The translations under genes were made by a program, and so were the position numbers. A stretch of DNA of 55,026 nt from an uncultured Methanosarcinales archaeon (GTDB taxonomy: Archaea > Nanobdellota > Nanobdellia > Woesearchaeales > JASKKU01). The notes beneath the pieces are model-generated. The model did no database searches, was not told where the DNA came from, and worked only from the letters and a program-made list of their open reading frames with translations. The stretch's first letter is position 1; every line of letters begins with the position of its first letter. Below are positions 1,762 to 52,180 of the stretch, piece by piece. The stretch covers positions 1 through 55,026 of the forward strand of contig CAYUJZ010000005.1 of assembly GCA_964445165.1 (NCBI GenBank), given 5' to 3'.

Positions 1762-1884
1762 TGCCGGCGGGGGGAATTGAACCCCCGACTTCCAGATGCC
1801 TCAGCAGAGCGTTTTATCATTGCACATGGCTCAACACTCAAATCTTATGAGTCTGGCGCTCTAACCAGGCTAAACTACGCCGGC
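1762..1884 (-). tRNA. tRNA-Met (anticodon CAT, G1-C72 so elongator-type or Ile2-type) with a 48-nt intron at the canonical 37/38 position (intron 1798-1845)
   Basis: Hand-folded cloverleaf with acceptor GCCGGCG/CGCCGGC, D stem GTTT/GAGC, anticodon stem CCAGA/TCTGG, loop CTCATA|A and T arm GGGGG-TTCAATT-CCCCC. Intron nt 43-46 (UGAG) pair with loop nt 32-35 (CUCA) as a 4-bp helix flanked by two 3-nt bulges (UA|A and GC|A), which is a BHB motif. A TATA-like element, gttttaaaa on the minus strand, lies at 1910-1918. Confidence 0.85.
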
Positions 1885-10460: not shown

Positions 10461-12359
10461 CTACCTTAACCTGATGGCATCAAGGTTTCTTGGAACCATA
10501 GTTTCAATCCTGTAAGCCTTGTGCAGGCTGCTCGCAAGGTCAATTGCCCTTGACACCTCACCATGCAGAATAATAACCTTTTTTGGCTTTGGGTTCAGTG
10601 CACCGACAAAGCCCATAAGCTGCTTTCTGTCACTATGCCCGGAGAGCCCCTCTATTGTAACAATCCTAGTCTTTAGCTGGAGCACTTCATGCCGGTTCTC
10701 CCCAGATGCAAAGGCAACCTCTCTTTCCCCGTTCTGTATCCTTCTTCCAAGAGACCCCTCACCTTGATAGGAAACAAACAGAAGCAAGTTCTTAGGGTTA
10801 TCGCCGAAATTCTTAAGGTATTCAACACTGGGGCCGCCGACAAGCATTCCTGACGTTGCAAGCACAATGCATGGCTCTCCATCAATAACCTCCTGCCTTT
10901 CCTTGGCAGAGCCAACCTGCCTGAAAACTTCCGAAAGGAAAGGATTTAAGTCCATATGAAAGATAAGCTTCCTTAAGTGCGGGTTGAAAAACTCAGGATA
11001 GGCAGAGTAAATCGCAGTAATGTCCCAGACCATCCCATCAATAAAAACAGGATGCATTGGCAATTTTCCCTCCCTCATTGCCTTTTCAATCAGCATCATA
11101 ACCTCCTGCGCCCTTCCAGACCCAAGCACAGGCACAAGCACCTTGCCGCCATTATTCAAGGTTTCTTTCACAGCCGAGATAAGCATCTCCTCGCTCTCTT
11201 TCTTAGTCATAAGCACATTGTCTTTTCCGCCATAAGTGCTTTCAATAATCAATGTTTCAAGCCTGGGAAACCTTGTCTCTGCCTGGTCAAGCAGCAGGCT
11301 TTTCGCATACTTTAAGTCTCCCGTGTAAAGGATATTGTGAAGCCCGTTTCCAATATGCAGGTGAACCATCGAGCTTCCAAGAATGTGCCCGGCGTTGTAC
11401 AGCGTTATCCTGATATCAGGAGTAATGTCAGAAACCTCCTCATAATTAAGCGTTACAGTGTGCTTGATGAACTCCTTAATGTCATCCATGGAAAATATAG
11501 GGTCTTTCCTCTTGTCCATCATGACTTTTATATAATCAATAAGCAGCATTGCAGAAACATCCCTGGTTGGCTCAGTGCAATACACAGGGCCCCGGTAGCC
11601 GAACTTAAACAGGTATGGCACAAACCCAACATGGTCAAGGTGAGAGTGGCTGATTATCACAGCATCAATCTCATCAATCTTAAAATCAGGAGAGTCCAGG
11701 AAAGGGTACCCGTTGCTTGAGTCAGTGATGTCAACGCCACAGTCAATCAACACCCTTGATTCCGGAGTCTGCAGAAGCAGGCAGCTCTTTCCCACCTGCC
11801 TGGCCCCACCAAGAAAGCTCATCCTTACCCACTCTTCCCTTTTGTTTCTTGTCCACCCATCGTAAATCCTGTGCCCGACTTTATTTAAGAAATCCCTCCT
11901 GTACTCAGACTCAATAAAGAGCACTTTTCTTATGTCATCCACAATCTTTGACTTGACAGGCGGAGCCCTTCTCACATTAGGTATCCAAAGAGTTTCCTCT
12001 TTAATTTGCTTTAAAAGTGAGCCTTCCTTTCCAATAACCAGTCCCGGCTTAAGCGCCTCAATAACAACCACAGACCTCGCCGGATCAAACAGTATATCCT
12101 TTATTTCAGCTTCTTCAGGAACCATGTCCCTTATGCTTTTCTCAACCTCTTTCTGGCTTTTAAGAATGCTTGGGTCAGCCCTAAGCTCAATTCTTTTCTT
12201 GAGCATGTCAACAGCCCTTTTAATGTCATCCCCGGGGTCAAGCAGGTAATTCCTGTCAGTAGTATAAAGGACAATATTCGCACCCTCAAAAAAAGCCTTG
12301 CTTATCCTTTCCTTTTCAACAACTTCATAAATCTCTTTAATAATGTCTAGCTTCGGCAT
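10461..12359 (-). CDS. aCPSF1: aCPSF1/FttA-type KH-KH-metallo-beta-lactamase-beta-CASP ribonuclease
   Basis: 632 aa with an N-terminal KH region including a GxxG motif 'VIGKEG', the 'HSHLDHVG' metallo-beta-lactamase motif, and beta-CASP length and architecture. Confidence 0.9.
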   Translation of the reverse strand: MPKLDIIKEIYEVVEKERISKAFFEGANIVLYTTDRNYLLDPGDDIKRAVDMLKKRIELRADPSILKSQKEVEKSIRDMVPEEAEIKDILFDPARSVVVIEALKPGLVIGKEGSLLKQIKEETLWIPNVRRAPPVKSKIVDDIRKVLFIESEYRRDFLNKVGHRIYDGWTRNKREEWVRMSFLGGARQVGKSCLLLQTPESRVLIDCGVDITDSSNGYPFLDSPDFKIDEIDAVIISHSHLDHVGFVPYLFKFGYRGPVYCTEPTRDVSAMLLIDYIKVMMDKRKDPIFSMDDIKEFIKHTVTLNYEEVSDITPDIRITLYNAGHILGSSMVHLHIGNGLHNILYTGDLKYAKSLLLDQAETRFPRLETLIIESTYGGKDNVLMTKKESEEMLISAVKETLNNGGKVLVPVLGSGRAQEVMMLIEKAMREGKLPMHPVFIDGMVWDITAIYSAYPEFFNPHLRKLIFHMDLNPFLSEVFRQVGSAKERQEVIDGEPCIVLATSGMLVGGPSVEYLKNFGDNPKNLLLFVSYQGEGSLGRRIQNGEREVAFASGENRHEVLQLKTRIVTIEGLSGHSDRKQLMGFVGALNPKPKKVIILHGEVSRAIDLASSLHKAYRIETMVPRNLDAIRLR

Positions 12360-12444
12360 TTACATAAACCTCATCCATTTTTTCCAAAAATCACTCAAAA
12401 GAAATTTTTTAACCAATCTTTTTTATCAAGCTTAGCTTCCGGGC

Positions 12445-13089
12445 TTATTCAGGCTTCTCTATGCTGAACTCCTTGTCAACATCAACCTTAAAGCCGCTAT
12501 CTGTTACGCTTACAATCTCTATTCCATTTCCAGACCCTATGTCCCTGTTCAAAGCCCCATAGAGCGCCTTGTAGGCAAGCTTAACCCCTTCTTTGGCAAG
12601 AAGCCCCTCTTTATACTCGTTTTCAAGCATCCCATAGGCAAACACGCTTCCGCTACCAGAACAGATAAAGTTTTTGTGCTCCGAGACAGAGCCGTCCGGG
12701 TAAAGGTCATATAGTGAATACCCCTTTGGATCCTTTCCCCCAAGCACAAAATGCGTAATTGATGGAATTGCAGAAAATGACCTAATCTTCTGGTAAACTA
12801 TCAGCCCCAGCAGGTTTGCAATCTCGCTCACGCTTGGGTCCCTTTGGCACCTCAGTGCAAAAAGCTTAATCTCTGCCTTTATCAGCTTAATCAGGAGCTG
12901 GGCATCAGAAACCGACCCGGCAATAGTAAGAGCCAAGTTTTTGTCTATCTGGTGAATCTTCTTAGCCTTTTTGTCAGCAATAAGATAGCCGGCAGTAGCC
13001 CTTTTGTCAGAGCCAAGGACTACGCCATCCTTGCAGATTATGCCTACAGTTGTTGTGCCAGTTTTAAGAACATTTTCTTCCTTAATCAT
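12445..13089 (-). CDS. psmB: Proteasome beta subunit
   Basis: A short propeptide is followed by 'TGTTTVGIICKDGVVLGSDKRAT', which carries the N-terminal Thr nucleophile context. 214 aa. Confidence 0.9.
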   Translation of the reverse strand: MIKEENVLKTGTTTVGIICKDGVVLGSDKRATAGYLIADKKAKKIHQIDKNLALTIAGSVSDAQLLIKLIKAEIKLFALRCQRDPSVSEIANLLGLIVYQKIRSFSAIPSITHFVLGGKDPKGYSLYDLYPDGSVSEHKNFICSGSGSVFAYGMLENEYKEGLLAKEGVKLAYKALYGALNRDIGSGNGIEIVSVTDSGFKVDVDKEFSIEKPE

Positions 13090-41647: not shown

Positions 41648-42439
41648 ATGGCAGCAGGAAGAGTCAAAAAGAAAAAATGGTTCACGCTTTATGCTCCTTC
41701 AGTGCTTGGAGGAATCGAAATAGGCGAATCCCCGGCATTTGAGCAGAAAGAGCTCTTGGGCAGGTTCGTTACCCTGAACCTCATGGCACTTACCAGGAAT
41801 GTAAGAAACCAGGACTTCAGCATAAAATTTGAGATTAGCGAGCTAAAGGACAAGGATTCTGCAGGCTCAAAAATAATTGAGTTCTACATGAATCCCTCAT
41901 CTGTAAAGAGAATCATAAGAAAAAAAAGAGACAGGATAGACGACTCGTTCGCGCTAACCACAAGCGACGGCACAAAAATCCGAATTAAGCCAGTGATTAT
42001 CACAGCAACAAACCTTTCTGCAGCCAACCAGACCCGAATTATGAAGGCAGCAAGGCACTTCCTTTTCAATAAGATAAAGAAAACAAGCTATAACGACCTT
42101 CTAAACAGCCTGGTAAACCACACCCTCAAGAAAGAAATGGCATCATTCCTAAACCTCGTTGCACCAATAGAGAGAGTAGAGATAAGGTACTTTGGCATAG
42201 AAAATAATGTCAGGGTAAAAGAGCTTACAGAGGCAGGCTTCTCAGGGTTTGAGCCGCCAAAGGAAAAGCCCCAGCCAAAGAAAAAGCCAGCAGCAAAAAG
42301 CGAGCCCAGAGAAGAACAGGCAGAGAGCGAAGAGCAAGGGGAGAAGCCAGAAGAAAAGAAAGAAAAGCCAAAGAAGAGATCACCAGAGCCAGAAGAGAAA
42401 GAGCCCGAAGAAGCAGAAGAAACAGATAAAGAAGAGTAA
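41648..42439 (+). CDS. rps3ae: Ribosomal protein eS1 (S3Ae) with a roughly 55-aa K/E/P-rich C-terminal extension
   Basis: N-terminal 'VKKKKWFTLYAPSVLG'. The tail is 'PKEKPQPKKKPAAKSEPREEQAESEEQGEKPEEKKEKPKKRSPEPEEKEPEEAEETDKEE'. Confidence 0.85.
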   Translation: MAAGRVKKKKWFTLYAPSVLGGIEIGESPAFEQKELLGRFVTLNLMALTRNVRNQDFSIKFEISELKDKDSAGSKIIEFYMNPSSVKRIIRKKRDRIDDSFALTTSDGTKIRIKPVIITATNLSAANQTRIMKAARHFLFNKIKKTSYNDLLNSLVNHTLKKEMASFLNLVAPIERVEIRYFGIENNVRVKELTEAGFSGFEPPKEKPQPKKKPAAKSEPREEQAESEEQGEKPEEKKEKPKKRSPEPEEKEPEEAEETDKEE

Positions 42440-42895: not shown

Positions 42896-43573
42896 ATGCC
42901 AGCAAAATCAGGCTCCAGAGCAAGGAAAACCCCTTCTAAAAAGAAAAGTGCTTCCTCTAAGCCAAAAACAAAAGCAAAGAAAGCGAAAAAGACCAAAGCC
43001 CCAAAAAGCAGGGAAGCAGCCAAGCTCAACAAAATCTTTGACGAGCTAAAGGAATTCAGGAAAGAAGCCAGCATGCTCTCAGAAAGGATTTCCAGCCTGG
43101 ACAGCTTTAAGGAACTTAAGCACGCTTCAGAATTCAAAGACTCATTAGATAACCTGACATTTGTGGTAAACCGAGTTTACGAGCTTTTTTCCCAGGCCAG
43201 CGATGAGATGTACCAGGAGCACGAGCTCAATTCAGAAAGAATCAACCCCCTGGCATCAAAATTGGACAAGCTGATAGAGTTAAACACAAGGCTTTCTGAA
43301 GGGATACTCGGCTTGCTCAAAGAGCTTAAAGAGCTCAAGTCAAACGAAATCAAGATAGAAAAAGAGCTCCAGACAGTAAAGCTCCGCTCAGACGTAATCG
43401 CACTAAAGGAAGCAGGCAAAGATGTTATAGAAGGTGCACATGACAAGCAGGAAAAAACCCAGGAACACCCGCAGCAGAAGTCATCAGAAAACCCATATTA
43501 CCAACAGCAGCCCGAGCAGGAAAACAGCAACAGCTTCCAGGTAACCAACCCTAAGAGGATTCTCCCGAAGTAA
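42896..43573 (+). CDS. Hypothetical protein with a lysine-rich H1-like N-terminal tail, a coiled coil and a Q-rich C-terminus (225 aa)
   Basis: 'PAKSGSRARKTPSKKKSASSKPKTKAKKAKKTKAPKSREAAK' is followed by heptad-rich sequence. A TATA-like TTTTTAAAC lies about 30 nt upstream. Confidence 0.55.
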   Translation: MPAKSGSRARKTPSKKKSASSKPKTKAKKAKKTKAPKSREAAKLNKIFDELKEFRKEASMLSERISSLDSFKELKHASEFKDSLDNLTFVVNRVYELFSQASDEMYQEHELNSERINPLASKLDKLIELNTRLSEGILGLLKELKELKSNEIKIEKELQTVKLRSDVIALKEAGKDVIEGAHDKQEKTQEHPQQKSSENPYYQQQPEQENSNSFQVTNPKRILPK

Positions 43574-43575
43574 AT

Positions 43576-44370
43576 CTACCTTGGCTTAAAATTAGATACA
43601 ATCTTTCTCATCTCTTCAACATACTCACTGGCTTTCTCCTTTAGGTTATCAATCTCTGCCCCGGAGATGCTTGTAACCTGGTTATGCGCCACCTTTTTGG
43701 AAAGCTCATAAATCTCCTTTGCAAAATCCGCATGCTTCTGCTCAATTATTTTGGTCTTAACGAACTTCTCCTCAATCAGCCTTGGCACTTCCTTTGGCGT
43801 GGCAGGCATTTCACCGATTCTCATCAGGGCAGCATGCGAGGCATCAATCATAGCCCAGTAAAGCTCAGAAACCATCCTCAGGAATCCATACTCCACAGTC
43901 CTTAGGTTCCTTGGCGCCCTCTCATAATAGGCGTAGATAGCTTCCTGGCTCGGCTTTATCCGGCCCTGAAAAAGCAGAATCTGCATCGGCTCAAAAAACC
44001 CAGTATCAATCACAGCATAGCCATCACGCAAGATATTAACCAGCACAGGGTCTCCTGTTTTAGAGTGCTCCCAGAAGTTGGTAAGCTTCATTGTTGTGAC
44101 ATGAATCCTTTTCGATATCTTCTCCAGAATCTTAGCAGTCACAGTCCTGTAGGTCTCAGAAATCACATTATCAACGCTAAACTTTGCATCATCTATCACA
44201 ACCAGCACATCAATATCAGAGTGCGGGTCAAGGTCATTCTTCTTAGCCTGAGAGCCAAAAACAGCAATAACCTTAATCATCTCCCCAAATTCCTTAATCA
44301 TTTGTTTAGAGAAAGCATACACAATTTCAATAGCATCCTTGTCATAAAGGCTTTTCGTATCAGGCTTCAT
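43576..44370 (-). CDS. Pol-beta-superfamily nucleotidyltransferase with a C-terminal helical (KNTase/HEPN-like) domain
   Basis: 'VFGSQAKKNDLDPHSDIDVLVVIDD' is the G-S...D-x-D motif. The C-terminal ~130 aa is helical and lacks an obvious R-x4-6-H motif. It has its own TATA and AGGAG upstream. Confidence 0.7.
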   Translation of the reverse strand: MKPDTKSLYDKDAIEIVYAFSKQMIKEFGEMIKVIAVFGSQAKKNDLDPHSDIDVLVVIDDAKFSVDNVISETYRTVTAKILEKISKRIHVTTMKLTNFWEHSKTGDPVLVNILRDGYAVIDTGFFEPMQILLFQGRIKPSQEAIYAYYERAPRNLRTVEYGFLRMVSELYWAMIDASHAALMRIGEMPATPKEVPRLIEEKFVKTKIIEQKHADFAKEIYELSKKVAHNQVTSISGAEIDNLKEKASEYVEEMRKIVSNFKPR

Positions 44371-44434
44371 TTTTTTATCACACTCCTTGTAATTTTTTCC
44401 TAAATCTTATATTTATCTTATTATTCATGAATGA

Positions 44435-46597
44435 TTACTCAAGCGGAAGCTCGCTCCAGAACTTCCATTCCTGTGTAGGCGCATAACCTCCAACAATATA
44501 GTTAGGCCCTGAAATCTTGTCAAAATAAGAGTGCTCAATATTCGTCCAGGAAGTCGCAGGCTTGTAGCCAGCCCCCCTTATTCCAATAGGCACATCAAAC
44601 TTCTCCCACACCTTTGTAAGCTGCCTCGCCGGACCTTCATCATGCCCTTCCGAGATTATGTCAAAGTTGACCTTATTTTTCTTAAGAATCTCAATTGCCT
44701 CTTTCAAAGGCATACCCCCCTGGCCAGCCGGAAGATGAGAGTGCGCTCTTCCAAAAGAGTCAACAAGGTGCACATGCCCTAAAACACCTTCTTCGGCGAG
44801 CTTCTGAATCTGCTTTTTGTACCACTCATTGAATTCTTTTATCCTCTCCTCTTCATTCCTGAATTTCTTCCCTTCAGGGTTAAAGTATCTCATCCACATC
44901 CCTAAATGCTGGGTATCCAAAGTTGCTTTTATATGATCTTTGGCTATCTTTTCCGCCTCGGATTCCTTCATTTTGTACTCCTGCTTAAGGCGTTCTTTTA
45001 GCTCATTCCTGGAGTCCTTAACTATCTTAATCAGCTCTTCAGGGTGGCTTCCGTAGCCCATCTCAGGAAATACGTTCTCAGGCGCGATATATATCGGTTT
45101 CTTCAGCTTCTTCGCAACAGTTTCCCTGTAGGCATAAAGCCCTGCCTCTGCAAGCCCTCGGCTGCTCCTCTTCTGCCCGAACTCATCCACCGGCTTAATC
45201 CTGTCAAGCTGCTCTTTTAGCTGCTGGGCGCGCTGAAAATAGCTTGAAGCTGTTTCAGACATGTGCAGGTATTCTTTCTCAAGCTGCTTCTTCCTCTCAC
45301 TTAGCACCTCTATAATATTTTTCCTGTCCGGCGGAAGCAGGCCAGCAACATCCGGGTCTCTCATAAGCTCTGTGAAATGCTCATTAAACTTTTCCTCTCC
45401 TATCTTGCCTTTTAGGCCTTCATATCCTTCCAGCACTTTGTTAATCTTGTCAATCTTCTCCTTAATCTTGTCAATCCCATGTGCATAGTACCTTCCCATT
45501 CCCTCAGACTGCCTCACATCCCCCAGCCTGGACTCCTTAAAGATAAAGAGCAGAGGATGCTCTTTTTTCAGCTTCTCATAGTCCTGCTCAATCCTCTGAA
45601 GGTAGCCTTTGGTTCCGTCATCCTTAATATCAGAGTTTTTTGTAATGTCCACAACCCTGCCCATCCATTCAAAAAAGTGTTTTCTTTCTTTATCAAGTTG
45701 ATTAAGGTTCATCATCCTGACCTTAATGTCCCCGCTCTTTCCGTTTTCGTCTACAAACTCAGGTATCCTTTCCTCGGGCGATAATGCAAGGTTATCATTA
45801 ACATTAAGGTAATCGCCTTTCTTTACCTGGACTTCCCTGTTAAGCCTTTTGTCAAAATAAGAGAAGTCCTCCTTTGCAGTTTTCCATTCAGGTACAGGCA
45901 CATTCTCATTTGTCTTAAGCACCTGGTGCATAGAGCCGGTTTTTTCATCCACCACATATATAGGAATCTGCTTGCTCTCATCCCTGAACTGCTCAAAAGG
46001 CCCTCTTTTTATCCCGGTTTCCCCATCAATGTTAATCGTACCAGGCTCGCTTGGAGGTGACTCAGCCATCGAAATTGGCCTGGAGTACTCACCTGTATGG
46101 ACCACTATTGGAACGCCTGAGTCGGGCATGCTTTCATCAGAAGAAATATCCGCGGCAAAATCCACAGCCTTCTTAATCTCATTCAGCTCATATTCCTGAA
46201 GCTCGTTGCTGAATCCCTGCTTCCCGTCAAAGCCGGAGAGGTTCGGGACAGAATTTGTTGGGGTGTGCACAGTCAACTTGAACTTGTTGAACTTTGCAAG
46301 CTGCCTCATGTCTTCTCTTTTTTCATTCCCGTAGCTCTCAGCCCCCACTCCTTTATCTGACCCTTCGGGCATCTGGTTTAGCTCAACTCCTCTCGCCCCA
46401 CTTCTCATAGCCCTCATCATGCCCTGCCTGAAGTCACCGCCTCCGGCTCTTCCTTCTATAATAGAAGGAGAAATATCACTCGGCTGAATCAAAGGCTCCT
46501 CAATCCTGTCACTTGAGCCAATATAGCTTGGGTTTTGGTCATTAGAAATGTAGAAATCCCTTTCCATAGGCCCTTTATAATTATTCCCAAAATCCAT
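44435..46597 (-). CDS. Xylose-isomerase-like/endonuclease-IV-like TIM-barrel protein interrupted by a large (about 270 aa) insertion (720 aa)
   Basis: Barrel strand motifs appear in order: 'GVELN', 'KLTVHTP', 'IVVHTGEY' (aa 165-171), then 'IYIAPEN' (aa 502-508), 'LDTQHLGMW', 'HVHLVDSFGRAHSHLPAGQGGMP' and 'FDIISEGHDEG'. Confidence 0.6.
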   Translation of the reverse strand: MDFGNNYKGPMERDFYISNDQNPSYIGSSDRIEEPLIQPSDISPSIIEGRAGGGDFRQGMMRAMRSGARGVELNQMPEGSDKGVGAESYGNEKREDMRQLAKFNKFKLTVHTPTNSVPNLSGFDGKQGFSNELQEYELNEIKKAVDFAADISSDESMPDSGVPIVVHTGEYSRPISMAESPPSEPGTINIDGETGIKRGPFEQFRDESKQIPIYVVDEKTGSMHQVLKTNENVPVPEWKTAKEDFSYFDKRLNREVQVKKGDYLNVNDNLALSPEERIPEFVDENGKSGDIKVRMMNLNQLDKERKHFFEWMGRVVDITKNSDIKDDGTKGYLQRIEQDYEKLKKEHPLLFIFKESRLGDVRQSEGMGRYYAHGIDKIKEKIDKINKVLEGYEGLKGKIGEEKFNEHFTELMRDPDVAGLLPPDRKNIIEVLSERKKQLEKEYLHMSETASSYFQRAQQLKEQLDRIKPVDEFGQKRSSRGLAEAGLYAYRETVAKKLKKPIYIAPENVFPEMGYGSHPEELIKIVKDSRNELKERLKQEYKMKESEAEKIAKDHIKATLDTQHLGMWMRYFNPEGKKFRNEEERIKEFNEWYKKQIQKLAEEGVLGHVHLVDSFGRAHSHLPAGQGGMPLKEAIEILKKNKVNFDIISEGHDEGPARQLTKVWEKFDVPIGIRGAGYKPATSWTNIEHSYFDKISGPNYIVGGYAPTQEWKFWSELPLE

Positions 46598-46611
46598 TTT
46601 TTAATAAAGCA

Positions 46612-47088
46612 CTAAAACATATTGTCCCTTATTTTTTTAATCATCTCATCAAGCGCAGAAAGCGACTCCTCAACATCCTCATTCTTTATCCCATACTGCC
46701 TGATTGCCTCTGCTTCCTGCTCAATAGAGTAAAGGTCTTTCTTTGCATTATAATCTAAGCCAGTTTCAGGGCTTGCAAGCTCCTTTGCCTCCCGGTAAAG
46801 CTGCTGTGTTCTTGATGATATCTCCTGGTAAAACTTTGCAGGGTTTTGCTCATCTTCCTCCTGTTTCCCTTCACTAACCTCTTCAACAATCTCCGCAAGC
46901 TCATCCTCCTCGCTCTTTGGGCTACTTTCAGTTATCCTCCTTTTTAGCGATTCCTCGCTCTCTTTATCCCTTTCAGCCCGCTTTATGCTCTCTTCAATGC
47001 TCTTAATTTCCTCTTCTCGTTTATTCCTGAGCTCCTCAAGCCGCTTAATCTTTTCTTCACTGTCCATATTTTCGAATTCATCTACCAT
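46612..47088 (-). CDS. Highly acidic coiled-coil protein (158 aa)
   Basis: Its ATG at 47086-47088 overlaps the upstream gene's TGG-TAG (GCATGGTAG), which suggests translational coupling. E/D/K-rich. Confidence 0.55.
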   Translation of the reverse strand: MVDEFENMDSEEKIKRLEELRNKREEEIKSIEESIKRAERDKESEESLKRRITESSPKSEEDELAEIVEEVSEGKQEEDEQNPAKFYQEISSRTQQLYREAKELASPETGLDYNAKKDLYSIEQEAEAIRQYGIKNEDVEESLSALDEMIKKIRDNMF

Positions 47089-48560
47089 GCCAGCATCCCA
47101 TGAGCTTTCTTGAAGATTTCATAGCTTTTGCAGATAGCAACATCAACAGTGCCATAAGCTTTCTTAATCGAGTTTTGGTCTTTAAATTTCTGCATAGCCT
47201 CCTTTTGCGTAAAAGTGTCAATCAGGCTTTTGTGTACAGGCTTGTCTGTTTCAGGAAACAACGGACCGAAAATCTCCTTCATGCCTGAAAACACAGCAGA
47301 AATCGGCTCAAGCATACCCTTGCCCTTTGGCTTTTCTTCCTTTTTTTGCTCTTCTGCTTTCTCCTTCTTCTTATCCTCGTCAAACTCAGCAAGGTATTTG
47401 GTAAGGTCATCCCCAAGCGACTCAAGAACCTCTTTTACGCTTGCATCATATGAGCCGACCATCTCAAGCTGCTCCTTTCGTCTTACCTTGAGAAACTTTT
47501 CAATCTGGTCATTATTCCAGACATAGCCCCTCATAGTAAACTCCATCCTTCCTAAATGGGTAGGACCCCTGTTATATTCATTGGAAAAATTCATATTGGG
47601 CCTCGTCCTGTAGCTGAAGTTAACTATGATGATTGGCTTGAAATTTCCCGCGTCGCTCTTTGTTGCAAGAAACTCCATTTCCATCATGGAAGACTCAAAC
47701 CCAGAAACAACCTCAATATGCCCCTTAAGCTTGTTGCTCATATGCAGCCCCCTTATATTGTCCAGGTAAGGCTTAATCCAGCTGATATAAAGGTTTATTG
47801 CATCATGGTATTGCTTAAGGTATTTTATCGTGAATTTTCTCCTTGTCTTAAGCTCTTTGAAAGTGTGGTCTTTCCAGGTGTAGTATGCCTTGAGTTTTCT
47901 GGCAAGGACATTAACAAGCTGCATAGAAAAGTCTTCCTTGTCCTTAAGCCTGTTAACCTCTCCTTCCACCTCATCAGCATTCTTAAGGTTAACAGAGAAA
48001 AACAGGTCAGGAAGAAGCGAAAACCCAAGCTCATTTGCCATCCCCCAGACTGAAGCAGGGTTTTTAGCGCCTCCCTCAACAAGATCAATCCAGGTACCCT
48101 TAAGTGTAACCTCAGACGATTCCTCACCACAGTAGCTTTTATTGTAAAGAGAAAGCCTCTCATCAAGAATTCTCAGCTCCCTTAGAATCTGAAAGAGCTC
48201 CTTGACCATCTTTCCAATAGTAGCCATGAACTGGCTTGCCTTGTCCTGCTGGATTCCAAGCCTTTGTGCATTGGATCCGAAGAAGCTTGAGCTTTCAGAA
48301 GCAGCAAAGCTGTCCACTATCTTAATCATCCTGTCAAAAGAAAAGTCTGTTTTAAGAAGCTTGACCAGGGAATAGTAAGGCTCTTCCATAGGAAGGTTGT
48401 ATGACTGAAAAATCAGCCTCTGAAACCTGTCTGTATTAGGGTAGTTGCTCTTAGCAAAAACGCCCCTCTCAACTTCAATAGTATGCGCCCCATCATCTTT
48501 AAACTCCTCTTCAATAAACTTAATGCTCTTATCGTAATAATCGTAGTAAAGCTCGACCAT
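47082..48560 (-). CDS. Orphan hypothetical protein (about 492 aa), first gene of the cluster
   Basis: Long ORF with no TM helix and no nucleotide-binding motif. I prefer the ATG at 48558-48560 over the TTG at 48566. A minus-strand TATA-like AAATATATTA lies about 28-35 nt upstream. Confidence 0.6.
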   Translation of the reverse strand: MVELYYDYYDKSIKFIEEEFKDDGAHTIEVERGVFAKSNYPNTDRFQRLIFQSYNLPMEEPYYSLVKLLKTDFSFDRMIKIVDSFAASESSSFFGSNAQRLGIQQDKASQFMATIGKMVKELFQILRELRILDERLSLYNKSYCGEESSEVTLKGTWIDLVEGGAKNPASVWGMANELGFSLLPDLFFSVNLKNADEVEGEVNRLKDKEDFSMQLVNVLARKLKAYYTWKDHTFKELKTRRKFTIKYLKQYHDAINLYISWIKPYLDNIRGLHMSNKLKGHIEVVSGFESSMMEMEFLATKSDAGNFKPIIIVNFSYRTRPNMNFSNEYNRGPTHLGRMEFTMRGYVWNNDQIEKFLKVRRKEQLEMVGSYDASVKEVLESLGDDLTKYLAEFDEDKKKEKAEEQKKEEKPKGKGMLEPISAVFSGMKEIFGPLFPETDKPVHKSLIDTFTQKEAMQKFKDQNSIKKAYGTVDVAICKSYEIFKKAHGMLAW

Positions 48561-48697
48561 GCCCAAATTTATAAAGAGAGTCCTTAATATATTTTTCTCT
48601 TAAAAACCCATTATTCTATAGCAAGGTGCTGGTTTTTGTTTTAAGGACTCTCCAGCCATGACAAAAATTTTTAAAAGGCAAAGAAACATTTGCATTC

Positions 48698-49684
48698 ATG
48701 GACACAGATTCTGAAGGCCAGAGGCATTTTGACATTATCAGCATAGGCTCAGCAACAATTGACCAGTTTGTCTACACAGACATCCAGCTAATACAGATAA
48801 AAAGCAGCACCCTGGCAAAAGAGCTTATTGCATACCCGTTAGGCTCAAAGCTCCTTATAGAGAAGTTCCACCTCTTCACTGGTGGCTCTGCATCAAACAC
48901 CTCTGTTGGTTTCTCAAGGCTCGGGCTAAATGCAGCCTGTATCTCAAACATAGGCCTGGATTACAACGGCGAGATTATACTTAAAGAGCTAAAGAGGGAA
49001 GGAGTTAGCTTCATCGGCTCAACAGACAAAAGCCATCCAACAGGCTTTTCAGTAATACTAGACAGTTTTGCAAAAGACAGGACAATACTCACTTACAAAG
49101 GAGCAAATGACCATCTCACATTAAAAGCCATCGCCCTGGAAGGCATAAGCACCAATGCCCTTTACATAGGCTCCCTTGCCGGGAAAGCATTTGATGAAGG
49201 AGTAAAGCTTATCAGGCAATTTAGAAAAAACAGGAAAAAAGAACTGGTTGTTTTCTTCAACCCCTCCGCATATGTTGCAGACAAGGGACTTAAATTCTTT
49301 TCAAAGTACCTTTCGCTTGTTGACTTTTTAATTCTAAACAAGGAAGAGGCAAGGCTTCTCCTGGAAAACCCTCACCTGTCCAGCCCTGTTGATATCATTA
49401 CTGCTCTTCACATGAGGACAAAAAAGCCCATTGCAATGACAGACGGCGCAAACGGCGCATTCTATTATGACGGAAAGTCATTCCACCACAAAAAGGCAAG
49501 AAACATTAAAGTGGTTGAGTCTACAGGCGCAGGCGATGCATTTTCGGTTGGCTTCTGCTTCGGTGTCCTGTCAGGAAAAAAGCCAATTACCTGCCTTGCA
49601 TACGGCATAAAAAACTCAGAGTCAGTAATAAAGGAGATTGGTGCGAAAAACACCCTTTTAAAGAGATTAGCGTTTTCCAGGTGA
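48698..49684 (+). CDS. PfkB/ribokinase-family carbohydrate kinase
   Basis: 'GGSASNTSVG' and 'ESTGAGDAFSVGF' motifs. TTTTTAAAA lies at 48668-48676. Confidence 0.85.
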   Translation: MDTDSEGQRHFDIISIGSATIDQFVYTDIQLIQIKSSTLAKELIAYPLGSKLLIEKFHLFTGGSASNTSVGFSRLGLNAACISNIGLDYNGEIILKELKREGVSFIGSTDKSHPTGFSVILDSFAKDRTILTYKGANDHLTLKAIALEGISTNALYIGSLAGKAFDEGVKLIRQFRKNRKKELVVFFNPSAYVADKGLKFFSKYLSLVDFLILNKEEARLLLENPHLSSPVDIITALHMRTKKPIAMTDGANGAFYYDGKSFHHKKARNIKVVESTGAGDAFSVGFCFGVLSGKKPITCLAYGIKNSESVIKEIGAKNTLLKRLAFSR

Positions 49685-51544
49685 TTTCTTTTCAAAAGAA
49701 GCAAAGAAATCCTTTATTCTTTCAGCATATTCCCTTGGCTGAACCACAATATTCCAGTCATCAGGAAAGCATTTTTTGTAAAGAGGCCATACATACCTTT
49801 CGTCAAGAAAAACAATAATTCCAGTATCCTTCTCGCTCCTGATGCACCGCCCTGCAGCCTGAATAGACCTAATCATAGCAGGATAGACATAGCCGTAAAG
49901 CCTCCCTTTGCCAAACTTCTTTTCGTAATAATCAATAAGCTCACGAATCTCAGTATCAGGCCTTTCAAGCGGCAGCCCGACAATCACAACCCCTTTCAGA
50001 AAGTCTCCCGGAAGGTCAATGCCCTCGCTAAAAGAGCCAGACGCAGCAGCAAGCAGTACAGCGCCCTTCTCCTTCAGCGACTTGAACCTGTTCAGCAGCT
50101 CATCTTTTTCATCTCTTGACAGTGCCCTGTTTTCTGTAAGTATCTCCTTGTCTGTTTCAAGAAACTTAAGCACATTGTTCCGAAAGTCATAGCTGGGAAA
50201 AAACAGCGCAATGTTCCCTTTGCAGGATTCAATAATCTCAGAGCAAATCCCAGCAATGCTTCTGTACTGCTGCTCATTCCTCTCCCTGAAAGTGCTTGTA
50301 GTCCTTGGGATTACCTGCACCAGCCTGTTCTTCTCCGGAAAAGGGCTTTTGTAAGACTCAAGATAAGAGTTCTCTTTCTTAAAGCCAAGAATATCCCTGT
50401 ACATTTCAAGAGGGAAAAGCGTAGCAGACATAAGCACAAATGATTTAGTCTCATCAATAACCTCACCCATAAGCAGCCCTGGGTCAAGGCAGTTGTAGAA
50501 CAACGTAGTGTTGTCTGCCTCATTCTTTATGTACCTCACAAACCCGACATCCTCCTTGGGCCAAAACTCAAGGAACCTCGCAACAGATGAAAGATAAGAG
50601 TTTCTGCTCTGCTCACTCACCCTTTCCCCAGCATCGCTCAATTCAGCAACCGCTTTTTCATACTCATCCATGCTTTCCCATAAGAGATTAAGAAAATCCT
50701 GTTTCTTTACCTTTTTCTCATTCTCAACATTATGCGATAGGAAGTTCATGGCATCCTGAACCTTTACAAGGTAAGGGATTACCTCATTCTCCTTGTATCT
50801 CTTGGCCTGAAGTATAGACCTCTTAATAATTCTCGTAGTTATCCTTGCACTAAGTATATCCCTTAGCCTCTTGGGAAGGTTGTGCGCCTCATCCACTATG
50901 ATAACACTGTCAGAGAGCGAAATTCCCGATTTTTTCAGAAACCCGGCCCTTATGCCAGGGTTGAAGATGTATTGATAATCACAGATAATTAAGTCCGCGT
51001 TTCTTGCAATCTCCATAGCAATCTCATAAGGACAGAGCCTCAGGTCAGACGAAAATTCCCTGATTCTCTCAACATTGCTGAATGTCTTTTCAAGCTGGGA
51101 AACCACCATCTTTGCGTTGTTGGTGAACCCAGCATTTTTTCTTGTATTTGTGTAAAATTCACACCGGTCAGACTTTCTCAAAGACTTGCAGAACTCAAAA
51201 AAGTCGCTTGACCTCATCTTGTCAGCATTAAGCTGAGAGCACATCCACCTCTTGCCAATAATATCCCCTATTTTAAGCGAGATGTTGTTCTTCTCATTAA
51301 TCTTCGAGATTGTCTCAATCGCAATCCTGTGCTGGGTATGCCTGGTTGTAAGGAAAATAATTCTTTTTGCTTTTTTTTCAAGAAGGTGTTTTACAGCAGG
51401 CACAAGCGCAGCAGCAGTCTTTCCAACTCCGGTTGGCGCACTTACAATACAGTGCTTGCCCTCAGAAATCGCCCTGTAAACAATATCCATAAAGCGTTTT
51501 TGCGGCTCTCTTATGTTGTCAAAAGGAAAAAGAGATATCATCAC
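49667..51544 (-). CDS. xpd: XPD/Rad3-family 5'-3' DNA helicase with an Fe-S cluster domain
   Basis: 'APTGVGKTAA' and 'VDEAHNLP'. Four Cys occur in 'WMCSQ...FCKSL..DRCEF...LCPYE'. 625 aa. Confidence 0.9.
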   Translation of the reverse strand: MMISLFPFDNIREPQKRFMDIVYRAISEGKHCIVSAPTGVGKTAAALVPAVKHLLEKKAKRIIFLTTRHTQHRIAIETISKINEKNNISLKIGDIIGKRWMCSQLNADKMRSSDFFEFCKSLRKSDRCEFYTNTRKNAGFTNNAKMVVSQLEKTFSNVERIREFSSDLRLCPYEIAMEIARNADLIICDYQYIFNPGIRAGFLKKSGISLSDSVIIVDEAHNLPKRLRDILSARITTRIIKRSILQAKRYKENEVIPYLVKVQDAMNFLSHNVENEKKVKKQDFLNLLWESMDEYEKAVAELSDAGERVSEQSRNSYLSSVARFLEFWPKEDVGFVRYIKNEADNTTLFYNCLDPGLLMGEVIDETKSFVLMSATLFPLEMYRDILGFKKENSYLESYKSPFPEKNRLVQVIPRTTSTFRERNEQQYRSIAGICSEIIESCKGNIALFFPSYDFRNNVLKFLETDKEILTENRALSRDEKDELLNRFKSLKEKGAVLLAAASGSFSEGIDLPGDFLKGVVIVGLPLERPDTEIRELIDYYEKKFGKGRLYGYVYPAMIRSIQAAGRCIRSEKDTGIIVFLDERYVWPLYKKCFPDDWNIVVQPREYAERIKDFFASFEKKSPGKR

Positions 51545-51652
51545 AAATCCAGTTTAGGCTGGTCTTTAAAATGTTTTCTACTCAAAAACCCGGAAGATCA
51601 TCAAAAAGTTTTTAAAAGGAACCGAAATCCTAGCAATAGAGGCTTGATTCAG

Positions 51653-52180
51653 ATGGCAAAGTTAAGAAAAGCAGTTTGCTACAGGAGGCTAGAAAGGCCA
51701 TACACCCGAGTATCAAAATTCAGGAAACACTCCTTTGTAAAGGCAAGGCCGCACGTTAAAATCACAAAGTTTGACATGGGCAATGTAAAAGGCAATTTTG
51801 CCGTTGCTTTTGACCTGGTTTCCAAGTCAGGCCTTCAGGTAAGGCAGGAGGCCATGGAGGCTTCAAGGCAGATGCTTAACAGGAAACTGGAGCAGAAAAT
51901 AGGCAACGCAAACTACCATTTCAGGGTCAGGAAGTACCCGCACCACATTCTTAGGCAGAATTCCATAGCATCCGGCGCAGGCGCAGACAGGCTGAGCACA
52001 GGGATGCAGCTCGCTTTTGGGAAAGCCATAGGCGTAGCAGCACAGGTAAAGAAAGGAGATACACTTTTCACAATAAAAGTTAACAGGCAGCACAGGAACA
52101 CAGTCAGGACAATACTTACAGCAGTGCGCTCAAAGCTCCCAAACCAATGGTATATAGTTGAAAAAAATCTAGGTGAGTAA
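51653..52180 (+). CDS. rpl10e: Ribosomal protein uL16 (L10e)
   Basis: 'MAKLRKAVCYRRLERPYTRVSKFRKHSFVKARPHVKITKFDMGN'. The ORF-track extension back to 51329 is antisense to xpd and is not credible. Confidence 0.9.
   Translation: MAKLRKAVCYRRLERPYTRVSKFRKHSFVKARPHVKITKFDMGNVKGNFAVAFDLVSKSGLQVRQEAMEASRQMLNRKLEQKIGNANYHFRVRKYPHHILRQNSIASGAGADRLSTGMQLAFGKAIGVAAQVKKGDTLFTIKVNRQHRNTVRTILTAVRSKLPNQWYIVEKNLGE

Follow-up and report, generated by a model that had tools for sequence, protein, structure and literature searches.

This report concerns a cluster of four genes, here called G1–G4, on an uncultured woesearchaeal contig (CAYUJZ010000005.1, assembly GCA_964445165.1); the whole stretch analysed, 55,026 nucleotides (nt) long, is referred to as the window. 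The four genes are co-conserved in relatives and are often translationally coupled. They likely encode a core multi-subunit module around an active endonuclease IV-like metalloenzyme, the product of G3. Our reading of the whole, which we hold tentatively, is that of a core operon passed on vertically in Woesearchaeota-type DPANN archaea, whose products would form a complex around a tri-metal phosphodiesterase with nucleic-acid ends or lesions as its probable targets. A specific role in nucleic-acid repair or end processing, taken by itself, is possible rather than probable.

The cluster consists of four co-directional minus-strand open reading frames (ORFs) within 43576–48566, of 492 (494 from a TTG start), 158, 720 and 264 codons. 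G1 (47082–48560, minus strand) starts with ATG and encodes 492 residues; the alternative TTG start is at 48566. G2 (46612–47088, minus strand) encodes an acidic coiled-coil protein of 158 residues, G3 (44435–46597, minus strand) a triosephosphate isomerase (TIM) barrel of the endonuclease IV/xylose isomerase type with 720 residues, and G4 (43576–44370, minus strand) a Pol-beta-type nucleotidyltransferase (NTase) of 264 residues with a conserved helical domain. The ATG of G2 lies inside GCATGGTAG, the last codons of G1, giving an overlap of 7 nt, and the G2 stop is separated from the G3 start by 14 nt. The flanks are housekeeping genes (PCNA, MscS, S3Ae and L35Ae on one side; PfkB kinase, XPD helicase and L10e on the other), and the GC content of the cluster (0.42–0.455) is the same as that of the adjoining genes. 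A preliminary description, made from the sequence alone, had reported four consecutive minus-strand genes among housekeeping genes, with the start of G2 overlapping the stop of G1 and a short gap before G3; the ORF list, the Pfam matches of the flanks and the sequence at both junctions bear this out. Since each of the four has hundreds of homologues under purifying selection, they are real genes and not chance ORFs.

The barrel and predicted metal site of G3

The Pfam family AP_endonuc_2 (PF01261) matches residues 549–655 of G3, the C-terminal part only, with 45.2 bits against a cut-off of 31.1 (E 1e-11), and it matches all 33 of the 33 aligned family members (best E 8.8e-20). The AlphaFold model [mean predicted local distance difference test (pLDDT) 82.7, predicted template modelling score (pTM) 0.78] is a complete eight-stranded barrel, with strands 1–4 in residues 42–168 and strands 5–8 in residues 502–649. 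The N-terminal half of the barrel (46064–46486, minus strand; residues 38–178) carries strands 1–4 and residues H111, H167 and E170, and the C-terminal half (44594–45106, minus strand; residues 498–668) carries strands 5–8 and residues E507, D561, H564, H610, H619, H621 and E650. Between strands 4 and 5 lies an insertion of about 320 residues (45107–46063, minus strand; residues 179–497), composed of a beta-rich subdomain (residues ~212–296) followed by a helical bundle (residues ~298–495). The C-terminal tail (44438–44593, minus strand; residues 669–720) is aromatic-rich, predicted to be disordered and strongly conserved up to its P[LM]E-COOH end, Glu being the last residue in 122 of 127 sequences. 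Low model confidence together with strong conservation is found both in this tail and at the N-terminus (residues 1–33), and the C-terminal tail is a candidate partner-docking element. An analogy with encapsulin cargo and shell, prompted by the conserved tail, was rejected, as G1 has no HK97-like match. A sub-threshold match of Mvb12 (ESCRT-I) to residues ~550–608 (E ~1e-3, in 7 of the 33 members) falls on a helix-rich stretch inside the barrel and is attributed to chance.

A Foldseek search with the model returned matches of probability 1.0 to Apn1, Thermotoga maritima Nfo, MJ1311, UlaE, D-psicose epimerases and xylose isomerases. We compared G3 with E. coli Nfo, whose trinuclear site has nine metal ligands (H69, H109, E145, D179, H182, H216, D229, H231 and E261). 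The mapping was made by local motif and by strand order in the AlphaFold model. First, Nfo H69 and H109 correspond to H111 and H167 of G3, respectively, and E145 of the IEN motif corresponds to E507 in PEN. The pair D179/H182 (DTCH) is matched by D561/H564 (DTQH), H216 (HLND) by H610 (HLVD), and the pair D229/H231 (DRHxxxGEG) by H619/H621 (HSHxxxGQG). Finally, E261 corresponds to E650. All of these equivalents are located on the corresponding barrel strands, 3–8. Addition of Nfo to the family alignment with MAFFT --add reproduced the correspondences for strands 5–7 and shifted the N-terminal half. Among 127 distinct sequences taken from the loci, H111, H167, E507, D561, H564 and H610 are each present in 127; position 619 is Asp in 68 and His in 59, H621 is kept in 121 and E650 in 123. 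Because this complete nine-ligand set of the endonuclease IV type is near-invariant, G3 is predicted, almost certainly correctly, to be an active multi-metal enzyme. The earlier assignment of G3 as a metal-dependent xylose isomerase/endonuclease IV-like barrel with a huge insertion is thus upheld by Pfam, AlphaFold, Foldseek and the ligand equivalents alike.

The likeness to the endonuclease IV class (E. coli Nfo and yeast Apn1; apurinic/apyrimidinic (AP) endonuclease family 2) extends over the same TIM barrel (Foldseek probability 1.0 to 10nh, 4hno and 2x7v), the nine matched Zn ligands and the shared motifs DTxH, HLxD and [D/H]xHxxxGxG. The two differ in size, endonuclease IV having about 285 residues against the 720 of G3 with its insertion, and G3, unlike endonuclease IV, has conserved N- and C-terminal tails, is net acidic and shares an operon with G1 and G2. 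Among solved structures, the one nearest to G3 in sequence is MJ1311 of Methanocaldococcus jannaschii (PDB 3WQO, E 1.2e-10), also one of the top Foldseek matches; the sequence match covers strands 7–8 with the motif HVHxxDNxGYxxEHLxxGxG. An earlier survey listed MJ1311 as the predicted endonuclease IV homologue of M. jannaschii (PMC2770678). MJ1311 is a compact barrel of 293 residues that lacks the insertion, unlike G3. We know of no G1- or G2-like partners of MJ1311.

A barrel that depends on partner proteins has a precedent in the multinuclear non-haem iron oxidases (MNIO, DUF692; MbnB–MbnC and TglH–TglI), in which a xylose isomerase-like barrel with an endonuclease IV-like tri-metal site works only with a co-encoded non-catalytic partner. 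The resemblance to the present cluster would be one of analogy: the top 50 Foldseek matches of G3 include no MNIO structure, DUF692 is absent from the Pfam matches of all 33 G3 members at E <=0.1, G2 contains no cysteine, and none of the searches related G1 to MbnC or TglI. Taken together, G3 is a new form of the endonuclease IV/xylose isomerase-like barrel, distinguished by its insertion, tails and partner proteins.

The ketose 3-epimerases, UlaE and xylose isomerase, the sugar branch of PF01261, have the fold, the family and an E-D-H-E core in common with G3. G3 could accordingly be a sugar or sugar-phosphate isomerase or epimerase of a lineage-specific carbohydrate or nucleoside-salvage route, with G1 and G2 as unrelated or regulatory partners, an explanation that we consider unlikely. 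The best sequence matches of G3 after MJ1311 are D-tagatose 3-epimerases, Foldseek puts UlaE and the D-psicose epimerases level with endonuclease IV, G3 is acidic, and a gene for a PfkB kinase (48698–49684, plus strand) is divergently adjacent both here and in the related loci L004–L007. However, a single metal held by E-D-H-E suffices for epimerases of this fold, whereas G3 has in addition retained, almost without variation, counterparts of the five further endonuclease IV ligands, the His and Asp residues of the second and third metal sites. The best epimerase match among the NCBIfam models, fructoselysine 3-epimerase, is weak, scoring 15.9 bits and staying far under its cut-off of 305, and the equivalog cut-offs are not reached. 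Beyond the clade of the window, PfkB is also not one of the families found repeatedly near G1, and the tight coupling of G3 to G1 and G2 would be left unexplained. In E. coli K-12, too, a putative sugar kinase gene, yeiI, comes after nfo (L084); since PfkB does not recur near G1 in other clades, this parallel is probably a coincidence.

Co-conservation and gene order

To describe the association of the four genes, about 235 loci centred on G1, G3 or G4 were fetched and scanned with hidden Markov models of the families. In the G1-centred loci with at least 3 kb of flank, a same-strand G3 follows downstream in 59 of 62, with a median gap of about 410 nt, and relatives of G2 adjoin G1 or G3 in 32 of the 50 informative loci. 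G4 is present in 14 of the 34 G1-centred loci with at least 9 kb of flank. Viewed from G3, G1 lies upstream in 47/57 loci; viewed from G4, G1 or G3 is found within 10 kb upstream in 35/48, on the same strand in 34. G4 is linked to the cluster in 40–70% of loci, and in some genomes G4 lies 90–200 kb from G1 on the same contig. Two gene orders occur, G1-G2-G3(-G4) and G1-G3-G2(...G4). Overlaps of stop and start codons recur in both junctions, with −7 nt for G1/G2 in 13 loci and −4 or −1 nt for G2/G3. The preliminary description had treated the genes as one set, a view that absence of co-conservation in relatives would have undermined, and the counts show that the set of four is co-conserved.

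The flanking genes differ wholly between clades and include a Na+/H+ exchanger, NFACT, type IV pilus genes, pyrophosphatase and ribosomal proteins; the link between G1 and G3 is therefore more than regional synteny. This bears on the possibility that the four are independent lineage-specific housekeeping genes in synteny without shared function, G3 being, for example, the sole AP endonuclease and G1 unrelated to it. Gene order is conserved over long ranges in small DPANN genomes, as in L004–L007, where the whole 12-kb region is syntenic, and G1 and G3 stand apart in some clades. The adjacency of G1 and G3 nevertheless outlasts the complete change of flanks between clades as well as the change of order from G1-G2-G3 to G1-G3-G2, and overlaps of stop and start codons recur. 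Shared position without shared function is, on balance, quite unlikely.

Exceptions to the common arrangement were also seen. One metagenome-assembled genome carries G1 and G3 on separate contigs (L008, L087). In one clade (L119, L129 and L130; G3 at ~7.8–10.1 kb), G3 is parted from G1 and lies a few kb downstream of ribosomal-protein genes that look like the L1/L10 type, recognised by ORF translations only. In L239, which is labelled Hadarchaeum, G3 is beside S3Ae without G1. In L002, a woesearchaeal locus (same contig as L050), a 683-residue same-strand ORF without a Pfam match (10547–12598) is located between G2 and G3, and it could be an extra component of the module.

The other cluster proteins: G4, G1 and G2

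G4 passes the Pfam gathering cut-offs for NTP_transf_2 (28.0 bits against 21) and Polbeta (27.1 against 26.9). The catalytic motif GS...DxD is present, with G39, D52 and D54 invariant and S40 nearly invariant, and a second conserved domain carries the motifs FWxYxxxGDP, NxLRDG and DLYWxxIDxxHAALM. The description of G4 as a Pol-beta nucleotidyltransferase with a helical C-terminal domain is therefore confirmed. Its best PDB and NCBIfam matches are to kanamycin nucleotidyltransferase (KNTase)/ANT(4')-I and cover residues ~10–70 only, at 27.2 bits against a cut-off of 350; the C-terminal domain itself has no Pfam match, and relatives bear the Joint Genome Institute label 'predicted nucleotidyltransferase / UPF0332 family'. 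The taxon-named relatives among the matches listed (213 at E <=0.001) are Woesearchaeota/Nanoarchaeia. Both G4 and ANT(4') (264 and 253 residues, respectively) have an N-terminal Pol-beta NTase domain with GS...DxD in a two-domain layout. In contrast to KNTase, the MNT-HEPN/UPF0332 fusions and MntA of type VII toxin–antitoxin systems, G4 has invariant C-domain motifs of its own, shows no conserved RxxxxH in its alignment and scores far below the cut-offs (NCBIfam MntA, 20.6 bits against 60), and its neighbours are, in place of a HepT toxin, G3 and an unrelated 225-residue protein. It is also a slowly evolving single-copy gene, unlike toxin–antitoxin or resistance genes. G4 is thus a new subfamily of the KNTase-like MNT fusions.

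The neighbouring gene for the 225-residue protein (42896–43573, plus strand) is convergent with G4, the stop codons being 2 nt apart. Its product is rich in Lys at the N-terminus, coiled-coil in the middle and rich in Gln and Pro towards the end; it gives weak Pfam matches only and is found at the same position in L004 with 70% identity.

The presence of an NTase beside a barrel with a phosphodiesterase-type metal site raises the idea that a nucleotidyl mark is written and erased: G4, as a KNTase/MntA-like enzyme, would attach AMP or another NMP to a hydroxyl of G1, G2 or some further target, and the G3 phosphodiesterase would remove the mark. The second domain of G4 resembles the substrate-binding domain of KNTase, G4 occurs on the same strand downstream of G1/G3 far above chance, and G1 contains many invariant Tyr and Ser residues. 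Yet the scheme is purely inferential, G4 is unlinked in 30–60% of loci, at distances given above, and its score against the MntA model remains low. Furthermore, we know of no endonuclease IV-like enzyme that acts as a de-AMPylase. We regard such a cycle as improbable.

A word-indexed search with G1 found at least 770 homologues at 40–88% identity, nearly all labelled Woesearchaeota or Nanoarchaeota, and a profile search of 1.8 billion representatives gave a family of 704 clusters at 50% identity. In a scan of one genome per GTDB species, relatives were present in 486 genomes; among the 80 listed of these, all carry Woesearchaeota/Nanoarchaeota labels or a generic metagenome-bin label. The alignment has 47 invariant columns, with many invariant Tyr and Ser residues among them, and the sharpest motifs are LKGxWxDxVEGGxKNPASVYG, LPDLFF, RGPxHxG and the C-terminal FKKxHxMLxW. 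The median pI of the family is 8.8.

In the AlphaFold model of G1 (pLDDT 78, pTM 0.63), a seven-stranded sheet is assembled from an N-terminal part (strands in residues 25–87) and a C-terminal part (residues 291–348). A helical insertion of about 190 residues splits the sheet; it includes two helices of about 50–60 residues and holds the motifs of highest conservation. No match was found to Pfam, NCBIfam, PADLOC or PHROG with the single protein, or to PDB sequences with either the protein or the profile. Pfam searches with 51 aligned members gave scattered matches in seven or fewer (DivIVA, DUF2999; best E 0.003–0.03), and hhalign found no internal repeats. Foldseek returned nothing significant for the model against the PDB [best E 0.041, template modelling score (TM) <=0.26] or against the viral models of BFVD (best E 0.013). 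Candidates such as EmrA, START domains, Cyt toxins, axonemal coiled coils and phage tail proteins were rejected as noise from long helices and small sheets, at TM <=0.26. The structure comparison recommended in the preliminary description thus gave no known fold for G1, whereas for G3 it returned endonuclease IV and sugar isomerase/epimerase barrels. Likewise, the statement that G1 holds no recognised motif stands in the absence of a family or fold match, and the term 'orphan' does not, given the size of the family.

The preliminary description had also placed GMLEPISAVFSGMKEIFGPLFP at an amphipathic-looking end of G1. This short hydrophobic motif (47253–47318, minus strand; family consensus PFxSxFxGFxELF) is in fact internal, lying between the K/E-rich linker and a second linker, both of low model confidence, and it is followed by a conserved C-terminal helix of 40 residues. 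It is not among the segments with the highest hydrophobic moment, so the reading as an amphipathic end was abandoned. The motif is a candidate docking peptide or membrane anchor.

The latter option connects with a recurring theme among the non-significant Foldseek matches of G1, namely a sheet similar to the START/Bet v1 and Cyt-toxin folds. DPANN archaea cannot make their own polar lipids, and one could picture a membrane or lipid machine in which G1 is a helix-grip (START/Bet v1-like) lipid binder with an anchor motif, and in which the G3 phosphodiesterase remodels scavenged polar lipids. The weak matches of the sheet core are all to lipid-binding or membrane-active proteins, with the CERT START domain (probability 0.69, E 0.08), PYL receptors, Cyt1A/Cyt2B and volvatoxin, and the conserved Phe-rich motif follows a K/E linker. 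However, none of these matches is significant, the hydrophobic moment of the motif is not outstanding, and inspection of the G1–G4 translations by eye, with no predictor, revealed no obvious transmembrane-length stretch or N-terminal signal peptide. Endonuclease IV-like barrels are, to our knowledge, not lipid phosphodiesterases, and a lipid-remodelling machine is accordingly very improbable.

G2 has a computed pI of 4.5, in keeping with its earlier description as a very acidic coiled coil, and contains no Cys or Trp. Its N-terminal motif L[SP]PxERIxKLKxLEE is conserved, and the rest of the protein is poorly conserved. An analogy with MukF-MukE-MukB or Wadjet, in which a protein of ~490 residues would be accompanied by an overlapping acidic small protein and a large coiled-coil protein, was rejected because the match of G2 to the JetC coiled coil reaches E 0.039 only, G3 has no ABC ATPase and no kleisin fold was matched. 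Neither G1 nor G2 has described relatives.

Inheritance, proposed assembly and significance

We compared the evolutionary rates of the cluster genes with those of their neighbours by identity to the orthologues in L005. The values are 67% for PCNA, 65% for G4, 63% for L10e, 62% for both G1 and L35Ae, 55% for both XPD and G3, 54% for PfkB and 38% for S3Ae. Against the closest relative, L004, G4 (93%) and G1 (88%) again rank with the best conserved genes of the region. Both change no faster than PCNA and the ribosomal proteins. Relatives of G1 are absent from IMG/VR viral contigs, from phage genomes (PHROG included) and from plasmids. In PADLOC-DB 2.0, G1 has no match, G2 and G3 give only noise at E >0.01, and G4 matches the candidates PDC-S09 (2e-13) and PDC-M05A and, weakly, CBASS cyclases; since PDC-S09 models minimal NTases of ~100 residues, its match to G4 is a generic domain match. 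The core-like rates, the stable synteny, the lack of mobile-element relatives and the generic PADLOC match of the NTase thus argue for a vertically inherited core function and against a defence island. An anti-virus defence or nucleic-acid-modifying island, which the preliminary description had seen in the composition of the locus, is hardly credible: a nuclease-like barrel, an NTase and large unknown proteins do resemble a defence locus and G4 does reach PADLOC candidates, but G1–G3 have no PADLOC match, G1 relatives are spread over hundreds of GTDB species, the genes sit in stable housekeeping synteny with ribosomal-protein-like conservation, and there is no viral, phage or plasmid relative and no compositional signal. 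A nucleic-acid-modifying function as such, apart from defence, may still apply. The remark that the cluster fits no described system remains valid, as no publication describing it was found in the searched literature and G1 has no family or fold match.

Two non-coding stretches of the cluster may carry its regulatory signals, judging from their base composition and motifs. The region 5' of G1 (48561–48640, minus strand) is AT-rich and TATA-like (aaaaatatattaagg...tttataaa) and is a candidate for the archaeal promoter that serves the operon, in divergent orientation to the PfkB gene. The 64-nt spacer between G3 and G4 (44371–44434, minus strand) is AT-rich, with a TATA-like stretch and a GGAG-like element, and may be a candidate internal promoter for G4. 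In at least four separate sludge metagenome runs of 2020, the 5.2-kb region recurs in near-identical form (0.9–0.97 of sampled words), and the source organism therefore recurs in sludge reactors.

Further observations concern the neighbouring genes. S3Ae (41648–42439, plus strand), the least conserved gene of the region, has a K/E/P-rich C-terminal extension of about 80 residues past its Pfam domain (residues 5–180 of 263). The L10e ORF (51329–52180, plus strand; 283 residues, GTG start) is about 108 codons longer than its L004 orthologue (175 residues); because its Pfam domain begins at residue 129, the true start is probably internal. Elsewhere in the window, Rfam reports a tRNA match of 123 nt (1762–1884, minus strand; 54.6 bits), unreported by ARAGORN, which is probably an intron-containing archaeal tRNA.

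In the mechanism that we tentatively favour, G3 would bind three metal ions and hydrolyse a phosphodiester, its likeliest substrates being sites or ends in nucleic acids that are damaged or blocked, as with endonuclease IV. The insertion of ~320 residues after strand 4 may lie over the catalytic face and set substrate specificity. Assembly of G1, G2 and G3 would run through the G3 tails, which are conserved though predicted to be disordered, and through the conserved motif in the G1 linker. G1, which is mildly basic and under strong constraint, would provide the scaffold or bind the substrate, the acidic coiled coil of G2 would act as an adaptor, and G4 might nucleotidylylate the same substrate or a component of the complex.

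Several points weigh against this mechanism. The closest solved relative of G3, MJ1311, is deposited as 'D-tagatose 3-epimerase-like', and the next sequence matches are the D-tagatose 3-epimerases already mentioned. No NCBIfam endonuclease IV model matches G3 at E <=0.1, and comparison of the G3 profile, whole or barrel only, with the single E. coli Nfo sequence by hhalign gave nothing significant. The ligand mapping was made by motifs and strand order, not by superposition, and in the N-terminal half it leans on the strand order of the model, because hhalign was not significant and MAFFT shifted this half. All segments of G3 are net acidic, which is unusual for a DNA-binding surface, and tri-metal sites of this type are also found in the oxidative iron enzymes of the DUF692/MNIO group. 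As for the complex, the contact between G1 and G3 is one that we infer, G2 is missing beside G1/G3 in about one-third of loci, G1 and G3 are unlinked in ~5–18%, and no RNA run holding the locus was found.

A bolder version of the proposal can also be formulated, and we rate it as rather unlikely. G1 would then be a new fold and the founder of its family, G1-G2-G3(-G4) a new lineage-defining DPANN machine that is essential to the symbiotic lifestyle, and the barrel would act not on damaged DNA but on, for example, a nucleotidylylated protein, the end of an RNA or a lipid that has been scavenged.

The genomes of DPANN archaea are tiny, and much of their conserved gene content is without known function. 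Here, an operon of about 5 kb includes a protein, G1, that has no recognised family or fold match and is conserved like PCNA and the ribosomal proteins across hundreds of species, which makes it a well-defined target of study. Its function is directly testable, because the uncharacterized G1 is paired with a catalytic partner that can be recognised and that retains an intact active site. A false lead is also removed, in that the cluster is not to be counted among the defence islands. If G3 is the AP endonuclease of the lineage, the operon shows how a universal repair enzyme took on a large insertion and came to need partners; otherwise, the metal site of endonuclease IV has here been put to a new use.

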